A stretch of 64,000 nucleotides of DNA. It comes from Acetivibrionales bacterium (lineage in GTDB: Bacteria; Bacillota; Clostridia; Acetivibrionales; DTU013). Shown one piece after another: positions 11,699 to 55,350 of the stretch. The stretch is taken from the NCBI GenBank assembly GCA_050952225.1, contig JBMNKL010000001.1:494589-558588 (forward strand), in the 5' to 3' direction. The number at the start of each line of letters is the position of its first letter. Positions within the stretch are counted from its first letter, which is position 1. The notes under the pieces were generated by a model. That model was not told the origin of the DNA and made no database searches. It was given only the letters and a program-made list of their open reading frames with translations. Both the position numbers and the translations under genes were made by a program.

Positions 11699-12199
11699 AA
11701 TAGAAAGGATATTATCATGCCTAAAGATAGTTTTGGTTATTCCGGGTTTAATCCGGCGCCGTGGCCGATGCCGGTAAGTCCGCCGCAAGGGCAGGGGCAA
11801 AAGCACGGCAGGGGTTGTCGCAGGAGTCAAGGCCGAGGATGGCGGCAAATCCGGCGCCGAGGTCGGGGCCTAATATGACGGCAGGGCAGGCGAAAAGATG
11901 CCAATAGGGACGGCGCCAATGGTGCGGGGTCCATGAAGGCATCGGGGATACCTCCGGGATGACAGCATCCGGGATATCTTCAAGGATCGTCGGTGGGCCG
12001 GATGGCGCCGGGAACGGCAGCGGAACCGGCGCCGGGATATGTCACGGAAGTTGCGCAAAAAAGTACGGCAGGAAGCAAAATGACGGGGCCTGTGCTTGAT
12101 TTCTCCCCAGGCAGCCTGCTTAACGGCATTATATTATCTGAAATACTTGGAAAGCCCAAGTGTTTGCAAAAAACGTTCGGAAAACGATGGTGATGGCTG

Positions 12200-12940
12200 T
12201 TGGATATTAAAGTACTGATAGCTGACGATGATAGCGGCATGCGGACGGTATTAAAAAAAGCTGTTGAGAAAGTAGAAGGCTTCAAGGTGACAGGAGAAGC
12301 GGAGGACGGCGAAGCTGTCCTTCTTTTATTTGAGAGGCACCGCCCGGACGTGGTGTTCCTGGACGTGGAAATGCCGCATGTTACAGGTATAGAATGCGCA
12401 AAAAGCATTGTGGATATTGAGCCAAAAACTATCATTATTTTTGTAACCGCCCATGAAGAGTACATGCCGGAGGCATTTGACGTTTACGCTTTCGATTACC
12501 TGGTAAAGCCTTTCAAGGTAAGCAGGCTTATCAAAACGCTTGAACGGATAAAAAGGACCAGCGCCGAAAAACCGCGTGGCAACGGCGCAAGTTCCGCCGA
12601 AACACAAGGAACTCTTAACAAGCTTATGGTCCGTAACAAGGAAGGGGTAAGCCTTGTAGATATGTACGAAATCATATTGATACAACGCGAGGACAGGAGT
12701 ACGGTCATATATACAAAAAATGAGCGTTTTGTAACATCCGAAAGCCTCGGCAGTCTTGAAAAAAGGCTTGACGGCAGATCATTCTTCAGGTGCCACAAAT
12801 CCTATATCATTAACCTTAACGCTGTCAGCAAAATATACCCTTACGGCCGGTGGACATACATCGTGAAACTGAAAGGTATCGATAAAGACGCCCTCATAAC
12901 ACAAGACAAATATGATGAATTAAAAAGGATTTTCTCATAA
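12200..12940 (+). CDS. LytTR-family response regulator (REC plus LytTR DNA-binding domain)
   Basis: VLIADDD...VVFLDVEMP...YLVKP receiver motifs. C-terminal LytTR block (FFRCHKSYIINLNAVSKI). TTG start 6 nt after the upstream segment. Confidence 0.85.
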   Translation: MDIKVLIADDDSGMRTVLKKAVEKVEGFKVTGEAEDGEAVLLLFERHRPDVVFLDVEMPHVTGIECAKSIVDIEPKTIIIFVTAHEEYMPEAFDVYAFDYLVKPFKVSRLIKTLERIKRTSAEKPRGNGASSAETQGTLNKLMVRNKEGVSLVDMYEIILIQREDRSTVIYTKNERFVTSESLGSLEKRLDGRSFFRCHKSYIINLNAVSKIYPYGRWTYIVKLKGIDKDALITQDKYDELKRIFS

Positions 12941-52361: not shown

Positions 52362-53315
52362 TTATTCCTCTAAACCGGTGGCTTCGTCAATACCCAGCAT
52401 TATGTTCATGCACTGCACGGCTGCGCCCGATGCTCCTTTGCCGAGGTTATCAAGCCTTGCGATGAGCAGGATATGCTTATCATTGCCCCTGACATAGATT
52501 TCAAGGTTATTGGTTCCATTGCATCCTGTAGCGCATAGAAACCCGTCCTTGATTCCGCCTTCCGATTCGTAATCGATTACCTTTATGAAACGTTCGCCTT
52601 CATAATATTGCGACAGAAAGTCACATACCGATCCGGCGGTGTTTTTGTGAGGAAGCATGGCCGAATAAAGCGGTATTGCAACTGTCATCCCTTTATAATA
52701 CGGGCCGATTATCGGGGTAAATAACGGCGGATGTGCAAGTCCGCATGTTTTCTGCATTTCGGGAAGATGCTTATGCTGAAGTGTCAATGCATAAAATCGG
52801 GGGCTTTTCATGGATTCATCATCCGGGTCGGCAGATGCATACTCGCTTATACGCTTTTTCCCACCGCCGCTATAGCCAGACACGGCATGGCACGTTACAG
52901 GGTAATCACGGGGAAGAATGCCTTCCTTGACTAAAGGATAGACAAGCGCGCTAAACCCGGTGGCATAGCATCCGGGTACCGAAATGCGGGAAGACTTCCT
53001 GATTTTTTCCCTGTATTCCGGGCCGAGTTCGGGAAAGCCGTAGGCCCATGCTTCATTGGTACGGTGCGCCGTACTGGCGTCAATCAGCCTTGTATTGCTG
53101 TTTTCAACGAGAGAAGCGGATTCAATGGCCGCCTTGTCGGGCAAGCACAAAAACGTGATATCCGACTCGTTTATTATATTTTTTCTTTCACGGACGTCTT
53201 TCCTCTTCCCGGGGTCTATAACAAGAAGCTCGATGTCATCACGACCGCGTAAGCGTTCATTAATTTTGAGCCCGGTTGTTCCTTCCTGACCGTCGACGAA
53301 AACTTTATACGCCAT
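52362..53315 (-). CDS. argC: N-acetyl-gamma-glutamyl-phosphate reductase (short, type-2-like form)
   Basis: GQEGTTGL NAD-binding N-terminus, catalytic PGCYATG motif, about 317 aa. Confidence 0.85.
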   Translation of the reverse strand: MAYKVFVDGQEGTTGLKINERLRGRDDIELLVIDPGKRKDVRERKNIINESDITFLCLPDKAAIESASLVENSNTRLIDASTAHRTNEAWAYGFPELGPEYREKIRKSSRISVPGCYATGFSALVYPLVKEGILPRDYPVTCHAVSGYSGGGKKRISEYASADPDDESMKSPRFYALTLQHKHLPEMQKTCGLAHPPLFTPIIGPYYKGMTVAIPLYSAMLPHKNTAGSVCDFLSQYYEGERFIKVIDYESEGGIKDGFLCATGCNGTNNLEIYVRGNDKHILLIARLDNLGKGASGAAVQCMNIMLGIDEATGLEE

Positions 53316-53370
53316 GCCATACACCATTCCTTTAAATATTTACTGTTTTTATTTTGTTTCATCATTATAA

Positions 53371-53408
53371 TGTTTATAATTATACATTATAACGAATAAA
53401 AATGCAAT
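53371..53408. promoter_or_regulatory. Tandem ArgR/AhrC operator candidate upstream of argC
   Basis: TGTTTATAATTATACATT (15/18 to the ARG box), 2 nt, then AACGAATAAAAATGCAAT (15/18, close to the B. subtilis-type CATGAATAAAAATGCAAG). Confidence 0.6.
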
Positions 53409-53484
53409 ATCTAAATTGCCATATTAAATATTAAGACAAAATTCGTTAATTGAAAAAGTTATTTCGACCCCAATTTCATAAGCA

Positions 53485-53504
53485 GTGGAAGTTAGTTTTG
53501 CAAA
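53485..53504 (+). repeat. 20-nt repeat family, copy 1
   Basis: GTGGAAGTTAGTTTTGCAAA. Confidence 0.8.
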
Positions 53505-53522
53505 TCAAGAGAAATTAGGAGA

Positions 53523-53542
53523 GTGGAAGTTACTTCTGCAAA
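53523..53542 (+). repeat. 20-nt repeat family, copy 2
   Basis: GTGGAAGTTACTTCTGCAAA. Confidence 0.8.
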
Positions 53543-53837
53543 AATCAGCACTCTGTTGTTATCCGTCCACGACACTCGGGGGGTGTAAAGGGCGGGCAGC
53601 TTTTGCCCGTTCATCGTAGGCGAAGCCGAAGACCCTTTACATCCATCGCACATATATCCTTGTGTTCCCCGGTCTGTTTTTATGACAGACCGGCTAGCTT
53701 CCGGCGAGGACAGGGTTTGGGACAGAGTCCCAAGATTATATTTTAATCCACATGCGAAAACTGGAAGCTTGTAAATTATGTTTCAAAAATCTATTATATA
53801 TCTATAGTGGTTACTACATAAATGGAATACAAACAGG

Positions 53838-53857
53838 GTGGAAATTACTCTTGCAAA
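53838..53857 (+). repeat. 20-nt repeat family, copy 3
   Basis: GTGGAAATTACTCTTGCAAA. Confidence 0.8.
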
Positions 53858-54026
53858 AAGTTAGATAATTTTCACACCTCTGGTTTGTTATACCCGAAAA
53901 TTGACTGGCTTTGCTTCTCTATCCTATATTTTAACCTATTATTGCATATAAAGCACTAAAAATATGTTTAAATAAACTAATTTGAAACTGGTCAAAACGC
54001 TGATTCAATCTGAAACTGCAGCCTAT

Positions 54027-54066
54027 GTGGAATTTACTTTTGCAAAGTGGAATTTACCTTTTCAAT
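54027..54066 (+). repeat. 20-nt repeat family, copies 4 and 5 (head-to-tail tandem)
   Basis: GTGGAATTTACTTTTGCAAA followed by GTGGAATTTACCTTTTCAAT. Confidence 0.8.
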
Positions 54067-54211
54067 TGACCTTAAGACAAAATTATGCATAGTTACTAAA
54101 TATAAATTTTTATTTTTGTTAAAAAGTTTACTAGTTGAAAAGAATTGAGCGTGCTATATTTATATTAAATCAATACGGCAGGGACCGTATACTTGTTTAT
54201 GGAGGGTTAAA

Positions 54212-55350
54212 ATGGCAAGTGTTAAGTTGAAAAACGTTTATAAGAGATTTGAGGGCGGCGTTGTTGCTGTCAGCGATTTCAACCTGGACATTGAAGACAA
54301 GGAGTTTGTCATTCTTGTGGGGCCTTCCGGCTGCGGTAAGACGACGACACTGAGAATGGTTGCCGGCCTTGAGGAGGTTACGGAGGGCGAAATCTACATA
54401 GGTGACAGGCTTGTCAATGATGTCCAGCCGAAAGACAGGGACATTGCGATGGTTTTCCAGAACTACGCCCTGTATCCTCACATGACCGTGTTCGACAACA
54501 TGGCATTTGGGCTGAAACTCCGCAAGACTCCGAAAGATGAAATCAGGAGAAGGGTTCACGAAGCGGCCAAAATACTTGAAATAGAACATCTGCTCGACAG
54601 AAGGCCGAAGGCGCTTTCAGGCGGTCAGCGGCAGAGGGTCGCTCTTGGCCGTGCCATAGTGCGTGATCCAAAGGTATTCCTCATGGATGAGCCCCTGTCC
54701 AACCTTGACGCAAAGCTAAGGGTACAGATGAGGCTTGAAATCACAAAGCTTCATCAGAGGCTCAATACCACGTTCATATACGTTACTCATGACCAGACGG
54801 AAGCCATGACCATGGGCACAAGGATTGTCGTTATGAAGGATGGATTTATCCAGCAGGTGGATACTCCGACTGCGCTTTATGACAAGCCGGCGAATATGTT
54901 CGTCGCAGGATTTATCGGCAGTCCGCAGATGAACTTCATCAATGCTGCAATAGAAAAACGCGGAAGATAGACATTTTCCTGAAATTTGGCGAGAATAATG
55001 AGATAAAACTTCCCGAAGCGAAAGCGAAAAAACTCGAAGGAACCGATTATGTCGGCAGAGAAGTTGTTATGGGCATCAGGCCTGAAAGCATCCACGACGA
55101 GGAGGCTTTCATCGAGTCCATGCCCGACAGCGTTGTGACAGCCAACGTGGAGGTTGTCGAAATGCTCGGCTCCGAAACATTGCTGCATATGCATATCGGC
55201 GATATCCCAATCACGGCGAGGGTCAATCCCAGAACGAAGACAAGGACCGGCGACGTGATAAAAGTTGCGTTCGACGCCAACAGGATACATCTTTTCGACA
55301 AGGATACCGAAAAAACACATGGTATAAACTGCATATATACTGACGATTAA
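54212..55350 (+). pseudogene. MsmX/UgpC/MalK-type sugar ABC transporter ATPase, frameshift at an A5 run (54954-54958)
   Basis: Walker [10 protein letters not shown], signature LSGGQRQR, Walker [10 protein letters not shown]. The C-terminal regulatory domain (DIFLKFGENNEIKLPEAK...VMGIRPE) continues in another frame, and one extra A restores it. Confidence 0.8.

Follow-up and report, generated by a model that had tools for sequence, protein, structure and literature searches.

The divergently transcribed argC and msmX-like genes of an Acetivibrionales bacterium (argC at 52362-53327 on the − strand, msmX-like from 54212 onward on the + strand) are separated by a spacer of 884 bp (53328-54211), and the question that this locus raises is what the spacer contains and how it came to be there. 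The window, that is, the whole stretch of DNA that was analysed, comprises 64,000 nucleotides of contig JBMNKL010000001.1, and all coordinates without a locus name refer to it. An earlier inspection of the letters of the window (referred to below as the original prediction) had described five copies of a 20-nt repeat and a GC-rich, hairpin-dense island in the spacer. The present analysis indicates, with a probability of roughly 85%, that positions 53444-54071 represent a non-autonomous derivative, resembling a miniature inverted-repeat transposable element (MITE), of an insertion sequence (IS) from a Clostridia clade of the IS30 family, inserted between argC and msmX. This identity follows from the presence of both family ends, a 13-bp target-site duplication, an empty site in a relative, and an IS30 transposase in the full-length relatives. 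The element and its duplication are as follows.

53444..54071, + strand: whole 628-bp element, most probably a non-autonomous (MITE-like) IS30-family derivative (inverted-repeat pair I1, direct repeat D4, ends shared with 88 loci)
53431..53443, no strand: left copy of the target-site duplication, TTAAGACAAAATT, an exact direct repeat (D4) that abuts the left terminus
54072..54084, no strand: right copy of the target-site duplication, TTAAGACAAAATT (D4)

The repeats and the GC-rich island all lie inside 53444-54071, which is bounded by imperfect terminal inverted repeats (19/24), and the copies of the 13-bp duplication sit one base outside each inverted-repeat arm, precisely at the tips of the element. 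An exact 13-mer repeat of any kind occurs in 2.8% of Markov-simulated 1-kb regions of like composition; its presence at both tips, together with the terminal inverted repeat, points to a transposable element with a target-site duplication. An identical ArgC protein is encoded on five JGI metagenome contigs, of which L001 has the same spacer. Position 54071/54072 is also the point at which L002 stops and L003 turns to unrelated sequence, which is how assemblers typically behave where a repeated element ends. Beyond the tip on the right, L003 (positions 1-66) has 66 nt of unrelated AT-rich sequence containing the repeat-like AAATTTACGCTTTGCA, and L002 ends one base beyond the tip; these differing right-hand junctions suggest further copies or a rearrangement at that end.

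The next-closest ArgC proteins are 85% and 84% identical. In the locus of the first (L195/L196), the order regulator-msmX-argC-argB is kept, but the spacer is 252 bp as opposed to 884 bp in the window, and it is collinear from end to end with the window spacer minus the element and one copy of the duplication (243 bp). A single uninterrupted target site is present where the window has two duplication copies, and blastn homology between the window and L195 ends at 53409 and restarts at 54082. This comparison of the argC-msmX junction shows that the block is absent from the relative, and the empty orthologous spacer implies that the element was inserted in the lineage of the window. The original prediction had offered, among other options, the scar of a small mobile element with protein-binding end repeats; the mobile element is upheld, but it is no scar, being complete with both ends and an intact 13-bp duplication. 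In the 84% relative, L199, a different and unrelated insert of about 330 bp (~1990-2330) occupies the same part of the spacer; L195/L196 have neither insert.

The five same-orientation copies of GTGGAAnTTACnTnTGCAAA were recovered at the positions originally given (53485, 53523, 53838, 54027, and 54047), the last two of which do abut. With up to three mismatches allowed, five matches were observed against 0.24 expected, none of 100 shuffles reached five, and no further copy was found within the 64-kb window. The palindromic core TTTGCAAA that had been remarked on is real and intact in two copies but not in the other three of the five. A copy starting TGTGGAAT (54025) exists, as had been noted, but the terminal copy is the fifth, with which the element ends ...CAATTGACC at 54071. 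A sixth, inverted and degenerate copy, the 13-bp direct repeat, and a seventh degenerate copy (~53755-53783) had been overlooked. The full set, with the site of an internal deletion discussed below, is as follows.

53445..53468, − strand: left terminal inverted repeat, the sixth, inverted copy (GTCGAAATAACTTTTTCAATTAAC on the − strand), 19/24 complementary to 54047-54070 (I1)
53485..53504, + strand: subterminal direct repeat 1, GTGGAAGTTAGTTTTGCAAA, at the same position in L166, L021, and L110
53523..53542, + strand: subterminal direct repeat 2, GTGGAAGTTACTTCTGCAAA, at the same position in L166, L021, and L110
53755..53797, + strand: seventh repeat, degenerate (CTGGAAGCTTGTAAATTATGTTTCAAAAA), which shares bases with a remnant transposase promoter and aligns with CTGGAAnATTnTCTnTCAAnAAGCTATGATATATATGG, 5' of the transposase ATG in L166 and L110
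53806..53830, + strand: deletion junction, where the transposase gene (~1.3 kb) is missing, placed by eye against L166
53838..53857, + strand: subterminal direct repeat 3, internal in the right arm, with a counterpart at the equivalent site in the 3' non-coding segment of L166
54027..54046, + strand: subterminal direct repeat 4, in the conserved right end given below
54047..54071, + strand: repeat 5 and right terminus, GTGGAATTTACCTTTTCAATTGACC; flanks diverge right after ...ACC in dozens of loci and in L002/L003

When one genome per species was scanned for pairs of neighbouring repeat copies, 88 loci were obtained, almost all of them in Clostridia; about 20 are contig ends of Clostridium psychrophilum. 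When the 88 loci are read in register, the right end is GTGGAAnTTAnnnnTGCAAAGTGGAAnTTAnnTTTTCAATTsACC followed by unrelated flank, and the left end consists of TTAATTGAAAAAGTAAATTCCACCC, ~14 nt, a direct copy, 18-28 nt, and a second direct copy; the window element has both types of end. The left terminus TTAATTGAAAAAGTnAnTTCCAC of L021, L166, L185, and others is the same as the left terminal inverted repeat of the window. Full-length copies carry between these ends a single gene of 430-490 aa, whose product passes the NCBIfam model NF033563 (IS30 family) with 106 and 97 bits against a cutoff of 80 and also matches Pfam HTH_38. RefSeq names the homologs in C. beijerinckii and Butyrivibrio IS30 family transposases, and there are >7,000 homologs at E <= 1e-60. 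The terminal inverted repeats, at 53445-53468 and 54047-54070, fall within the 20-30 bp of IS30 members, and the same termini are found in L021, L166, and L162. A blastn search of plasmid and phage collections with the element gave no match. Target duplications of the following kind flank other insertions of the clade.

L021: TTGGAGGTTATAT
L166, isolate genome of C. thermosuccinogenes: TATCCACGCAATT
L162, C. beijerinckii plasmid: GAAAATTAGAAAT
L075, L017, L047, and L092: 12-14-bp repeats
L086, ~100-bp mini-element: TAAATCAAAGAAA, 13-bp

In the eight other clade insertions the duplications are 12-14 bp in length and their sequence is different at every site, which indicates that they are made upon insertion and do not represent the core site of a recombinase.

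The closest full-length copy, L166 from Clostridium thermosuccinogenes, has the same left arm as the window element and shares a 250-bp 3' non-coding arm that extends from ACAAACAGGGTGGAAATTACTCTTGCAAAAAGTTAG to the right tip and includes the 53838 repeat. A comparison by eye indicates that the match to L166 continues on the left of the deletion junction up to GGTGGTGCC, just before the ribosome-binding site, and resumes on the right from ...ACAAACAGG, ~50 nt past the stop codon; the window is without the stretch between these two points, and tblastn found no transposase homolog anywhere in the window. In full-length copies, the transposase open reading frame lies between the arms of a perfect 13-nt inverted repeat, GGTGGTGCCTCTG/CAGAGGCACCACC, one just before the ribosome-binding site and the other just after the stop codon (L166 ~1475-1487 and ~2813-2825), so that the repeat encloses exactly the stretch missing from the window; it is present also in L021, L110, L026, and L031, and could pair the ends of the mRNA or promote the deletion behind the miniature element. 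Transposase-less derivatives of ~100 bp (L086 7728-7832, which comprises the two tips and a single direct repeat, and L028 1-95) and of ~300 bp (L016, about 838-1135) were also found, and miniature forms, of ~100, ~300, and 628 bp, are thus common in the clade. As in MITEs generally, the window element has no transposase gene between ends of the autonomous type, and it has a target duplication together with an empty site in relatives.

Several observations detract from this identification. The element itself encodes no transposase and is for that reason a derivative, not an autonomous IS30 member. A 13-bp duplication is atypical for the IS30 family, in which the usual target duplication is 2-3 bp and long ones are known for Mycoplasma IS1630 alone. 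The internal left-arm copies are oriented like those of the right arm and are not mirrored, which is unusual for transposon ends. Finally, no second copy with the deletion junction of the window was found, the argC locus alone being recovered (L001-L004), which weakens the case for mobilization as a MITE, as opposed to deletion in place.

The IS30 transposase binds its ends through an N-terminal helix-turn-helix, and the 20-nt repeats of the present clade are predicted, with good confidence, to be binding sites for the corresponding N-terminal helix-turn-helix domain of its transposase. In the proposed layout the left tip would have one inverted site, the left arm two or three direct sites, and the right arm three further ones, including the abutting pair at its tip. 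Such sites could load several protomers and bring both ends together in a transpososome, as in Mu, Tn7, or IS21, with transposase supplied to the window element in trans from a full-length copy. In full-length copies the innermost left site overlaps the −35 element of the transposase promoter, which suggests autoregulation; in L021, the promoter scan places this −35 element, TGGAAA, inside a repeat.

The second question posed by the locus is the nature of the GC-rich island. GC content is 0.47-0.57 across 53500-53750 and 0.17-0.35 on either side, and every hairpin named in the original prediction is present, GGGTGTAAAGGG/CCCTTTACATCC corresponding to inverted-repeat pair I11 of the repeat finder. 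The structural elements are as follows.

53567..53736, + strand: GC-rich island, probably an optional structured-RNA-like module of the IS leader (models R1 79 bits, R2 101 bits)
53581..53644, + strand: domain 1, a three-way junction (93.8% of cells paired; outer P1 covaries between classes)
53581-53592 with 53633-53644, + strand: P1 of domain 1, GGGUGUAAAGGG/CCCUUUACAUCC
53593-53598 with 53604-53609, + strand: P2 of domain 1, CGGGCA/UGCCCG
53611-53615 with 53628-53632, + strand: P3 of domain 1, UCAUC/GAAGA, with an A-A mismatch, a GNA bulge, and a GGC-GAA-GCC tip at 53619-53627
53656..53716, + strand: domain 2, a second three-way junction (97.7% paired)
within domain 2, + strand: P4, AUCCU..G.UCC with GGA.C.AGGGU
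53669-53676 with 53686-53693, + strand: P5 of domain 2
53695-53698 with 53703-53706, + strand: P6
53716..53734, + strand: terminator-like hairpin TTTGGGAC-AGA-GTCCCAAG, then ATTATATTTT (terminator scan)

Folding of 53545-53745 gave −81.3 kcal/mol with z = −5.2 for the + strand, as compared with z = −3.5 for the − strand, and the consensus fold of ten copies contains 52 pairs, five of them with compensatory changes. Among 26 distinct sequences of domain 1, the outer P1 pairs switch from G-C to U-G and from C-G to A-U between classes, and the junction has almost no unpaired bases. In domain 2, five pairs are changed on both sides, a number that 1/500 shuffles reach and that falls to 0-2 in slid controls. 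The stem of the hairpin UUGGGAC-AGA-GUCCCAA also covaries (A-U to G-C, G-C to A-U) and is followed by a U-rich tail. It is scored as terminator-like in the window and at the corresponding site of L021, L110, and the phage contig L164 by the terminator scan; the T-run is interrupted. Invariant G-U pairs, which would be A-C mismatches on the opposite strand, identify the folded strand as the transposase-sense (+) strand. No reading frame in the island is open across the homologs, and indels shift the frames, so that the island was rejected as coding sequence; it was likewise rejected as a remnant of the transposase gene, to which tblastn found no match. The outermost helix of the minimum free energy fold, CACUCUGU with ACAGGGU, was dropped since it is not conserved in L021.

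In agreement with the original remark that no tRNA or known riboswitch fits, ARAGORN found 0 tRNA or tmRNA genes, and Rfam 15 gave no relevant match at E <= 10 for 52800-54800. None was found at the gathering score for six core loci (defined below), and the surroundings of the class B copy gave spurious miRNA and snoRNA matches alone. Conserved pairing with compensatory changes, strand-specific G-U pairs, and the lack of a conserved open reading frame, although taken from shallow alignments and, for domain 1, from a biased set, are features of structured RNAs, and they make it probable that the island is an RNA-like module. The earlier option of an unannotated structured small RNA is therefore plausible for the island, in that structure, strand, and terminator are backed by homologs, but the module is part of a mobile element and not a host gene.

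In the IS copies, the island is located between the second direct repeat and the promoter-proximal repeat. It shares 86% identity with the L021 and L092 leaders; the transposases of these two copies are, by eye, far more divergent than that. In the collections searched, its carriers within this IS are L021, L092, L094, L108, L110, and L116, together with the truncated copy L026; the leaders of L166 and >40 other copies are 127-190 nt long and are without it. Many contigs with close transposase homologs (L200-L211) start 95-131 nt before the ATG, approximately where island-containing and island-free leaders diverge, which fits assembly breaks arising from island polymorphism or from a multi-copy left arm.

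A metagenome scan with 23 specified bases of the domain-1 core gave 69 loci, of which four are IS30-type copies. In three others (L095, L136, and L141), the whole island immediately follows an IS6/IS240-like transposase gene of 486 aa, starting just past its stop codon. This transposase (L136 466-1926, also in L095 and L141) has zinc-ribbon-like Cys motifs and a DDE_Tnp_IS240 or IS66-like DDE domain, and in L095 and L141 the final hairpin is duplicated around an additional GC-rich hairpin. Two loci (L120, L123) are chance matches within coding regions, and about 57 have the domain-1 core alone. The contig-name series of many of these core-only loci are ones that we take to be associated with peat, bog, or soil samples. 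In class B (L100, L119, L097, and L148), the core lies 75-134 nt 5' of ardC-DUF6908-parB, which points the opposite way, and a TrwC-type relaxase is close by; in class C (L105, L102, L137, and L101), the neighbours include primase, XRE, integrase, and ribbon-helix-helix genes. The contigs of both classes are GC-rich. The core is at the tip of a long imperfect hairpin in class B and in the class C variant L101, and the 3' arm of the peat-type hairpins contains, by eye, TTGACA/TTGACG, 17-18 nt, and CATAAA or TAnnnn (TTGACA and CATAAA in L100). One 33-kb contig has three core copies (L106, L118, and L154).

Searches of viral contigs with two domain-1 patterns gave no match, and a domain-2 pattern identified one phage contig, L164 (IMGVR_UViG_3300022230_000143), in which a variant of the island at 12030-12240 directly follows an amidase/endolysin gene and adjoins an IS3-family element. 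Domain 2 and the terminator are intact in this variant, and domain 1 is without P3 and is reduced to a hairpin with a GUAA loop. No match to the class B hairpin was found in plasmids by blastn. Models R1 and R2, run over ~1.2 Mb of collected loci, detected no additional divergent copies except for one weak match (L146 2515-2594) and partial duplicates in L095 and L141. A full-text literature search for the core sequence gave nothing relevant, and nothing specific was found in the literature on IS30-derived MITEs or IS30-associated structured RNAs.

The interpretation of the island as a functional RNA module is weakened on several counts. The alignments are shallow, with 10-11 sequences for the island (10-26 across tests), and the domain-1 set was gathered with an exact 23-nt pattern, so that its conservation is inflated and its near-invariance is in part a product of that pattern. 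In the window copy, P6 has lost two of its four pairs. The scan does not recover a promoter that can be read by eye 5' of the island (TTGCAA/CTGCAA in repeat 2, then GATATT/TAATAC). Most IS copies are without the island, and it is accordingly dispensable for transposition.

The core GUCAAGGG-CGGGC..GCCCG-UUCAUCG..GAGACCCUUGAC is almost base-for-base alike in the Clostridia ISs and in the conjugative or integrative elements of the peat metagenomes. One tentative proposal, to which we would give slightly less than even chances, is that the island belongs to an undescribed structured-RNA class of mobile elements and that this core binds a widely conserved host or element factor. If so, binding of the factor might terminate or modify transcription, serve in priming, or counter a defence system, and the retention of the module without a transposase would reflect a function of its own. 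As regards a role in the IS, the island, with its terminator, lies between the outer end and the transposase promoter, and the simplest reading is that it may be transcribed as a leader or small RNA that keeps transcription entering through the left end from reaching this promoter. In IS200, a terminator at the left end blocks impinging transcription. For the island, an insulator role of this kind is possible and on balance doubtful. Comparison with riboswitches and attenuators shows that a junction domain and a terminator precede the transposase gene in the IS30-type copies, but an alternative pairing found by eye (GUCCC/GGGAC) is not kept in the IS6-type copies, and the module is also located 3' of genes. 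IS110-type elements use a bridge RNA, but RNA-guided target choice is not supported for the present IS, in which RNAs that are 86% identical are associated with unrelated targets and most copies have no RNA.

The most durable alternative to a cis-acting leader or insulator is that the island is an independent small-RNA cargo gene that acts in trans, for instance by affecting the host or countering a defence system. Its occurrence after genes in two other elements and its retention without a transposase argue for a role of its own, and the island may have such a further role. The three settings, 5' of IS30-type transposase genes, after an IS6/IS240-like gene, and after a phage endolysin gene, are unrelated, and the module invariably ends in a terminator-like hairpin. 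In addition, a −10-like box, TGTATAAT, can be seen by eye ~30 nt upstream of the module in L164, and peat-metagenome elements of the conjugative or integrative kind also contain the domain-1 core. However, the promoters are weak or escape the scan, a 3'-end or terminator module would be expected just as well between a gene and a terminator, and only ~11 distinct full-length copies are known; a trans-acting cargo RNA is a possible but not a favored explanation, though one to be taken seriously.

It is improbable that the structure acts instead as folded single-stranded DNA, either as a single-strand origin or as an Frpo-like single-strand promoter. No single-stranded stage is known for IS30- or IS6-family elements or for double-stranded-DNA phage. 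At the end of the Clostridia copies there is a terminator whose U-tract lies on that same strand, and the −10 element is poor in most class B copies. The evidence in favor comes from the peat classes, in which the core caps a long imperfect hairpin that is divergent from ardC-DUF6908-parB near a TrwC-type relaxase, an arrangement that is the one described for Frpo promoters in plasmid leading regions (PMC11541004). The signatures of the ssoA single-strand origin, RSB (TTATGCCGAGAAAATTT) and CS-6 (TAGCGT) (PMC4598088), are absent from the island, and this candidate was rejected. A single-stranded DNA role thus fits the position of the peat hairpins but does not fit the Clostridia copies.

Other identities for the block as a whole fare worse than the IS30-derived element. 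Long exact direct repeats flanking a set of sites that are mostly in one orientation, as in lambda-type arms, could denote a small integrative element moved by a site-specific recombinase, in which the 13-bp repeats would be attL and attR cores and the 20-mers arm-type integrase sites; this is very improbable because the full-length copies encode a DDE transposase of the IS30 family and no recombinase, and the variation of the 12-14-bp flanking repeats from one insertion to the next is that of a target duplication and not of an att core. The original prediction had included a multi-site regulatory region for argC or msmX, and the position between divergent genes and the partly palindromic core of the 20-mers are what would be expected if the repeats were operators for a host transcription factor and the island a host riboswitch or small RNA. 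This proposal has even less to recommend it and was set aside, since the block is absent from the L195/L196 spacer, where the flanking promoter regions are conserved, the repeats recur at IS ends beside unrelated genes in 88 loci across many genomes, no other copy is present in the 64-kb window, and no Rfam riboswitch matches. The likeness to a Tn7 end that had been noted, in its own words superficial, is indeed no more than that, and derivation from a Tn7-like (or Mu-like) transposon is barely conceivable: there are several transposase-site-like repeats at each end, abutting on the right, and one copy is preceded by TGT, but the duplication is 13 bp and not 5 bp, the termini are GGT.../...ACC and not TGT.../...ACA, both ends are present 628 bp apart, and the relatives have a single IS30-family transposase with no tnsABC or MuA/MuB.

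With regard to the host locus, the conserved argC-proximal and msmX-proximal promoter regions are now 641 bp further apart, and three promoter-like sites called at consensus level by the promoter scan face msmX. These are the remnant transposase promoter (TTGTAA-17-TATTAT, 53769-53797), an internal promoter-like site at 53901-53930, and a hybrid promoter at the right tip (TTGACC-16-CATAGT, 54066-54093), in which the −35 element comes from the element and CATAGT from the flank. Just upstream of argC, at 53357-53400, there is an AT-rich near-palindrome, TTTCATCATTATAATGTTTA/TATACATTATAACGAATAAA, which is kept in L195 and L199 (TTTATAATTATACATTATAACGAATAA) and is probably the native argC promoter/operator region; L003 has a 22-bp deletion at this near-palindrome. 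The msmX-like ABC ATPase gene (54212-55340) has a frameshift near 54970, at which a 252-aa open reading frame ends and the remainder is read in a different frame. L001, which comes from the same organism, has an intact copy of 371 aa and, conversely, a split argB. The window and L001 are 99.2% identical with 13 gap openings over 7 kb, and this number of gaps favours assembly indel errors, which are a more likely cause of the frameshift than a pseudogene.

The element itself is ordinary biology and is well supported; what is new is the combination of the 13-bp duplications of the clade, its multi-site ends, and an undescribed structured module common to unrelated mobile elements. For annotation, a puzzle of ~880 bp is resolved into a defined mobile element, which has consequences for the genes on either side. 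Within the IS30 family, the clade stands out by its 13-bp duplications, its asymmetric arrays of subterminal sites, and its range of miniature derivatives, and it provides a convenient system for studying the assembly of multi-site ends in the IS30 family. For RNA biology, the island is a compact covarying module of two junctions and a terminator that is not in Rfam and is found in different IS families and a phage; if it is functional, it would be a new and experimentally tractable RNA of mobile elements.

Among known systems, the 5' leader of IS200 is reported to be processed to a structured small RNA with host targets (PMC12594629). This 5'tnpA small RNA resembles the island in being an IS-borne, highly structured RNA at the transposase-proximal end that is accompanied by a terminator. 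The two differ in having no similarity of sequence or structure and in the transposase family, and the present module is optional and is also located outside this IS. The Frpo/ssi promoters resemble the peat relatives of domain 1 only, in which a long hairpin lies directly 5' of an anti-restriction operon in a conjugative element (PMC11541004), but there is no sequence similarity, the −10 element is unconvincing, and the window copy is IS-derived and ends in a terminator. With bacterial MITEs, the window element shares small size, the lack of coding capacity, and inverted repeats of the autonomous-IS type with a target duplication, but it is large for this group (628 bp) and keeps all of its subterminal sites and an accessory structured module. 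The ends of Mu, Tn7, and IS21 are multi-site and, like those of this element, have several spaced transposase sites of ~20 bp per end that abut at one end; in contrast, the transposase family, duplication length, and termini are different, and the internal sites of the left arm are not inverted relative to the right arm. The closest resemblance is to the IS30-family ISs, with which the relatives of the element share a single DDE transposase, HTH_38, terminal inverted repeats, a target duplication, and a promoter over the end-proximal sites, whereas the clade departs from the IS30 norm in its 12-14-bp duplications, its five to seven asymmetric 20-nt subterminal repeats, and a Cys-rich insert in the transposase.

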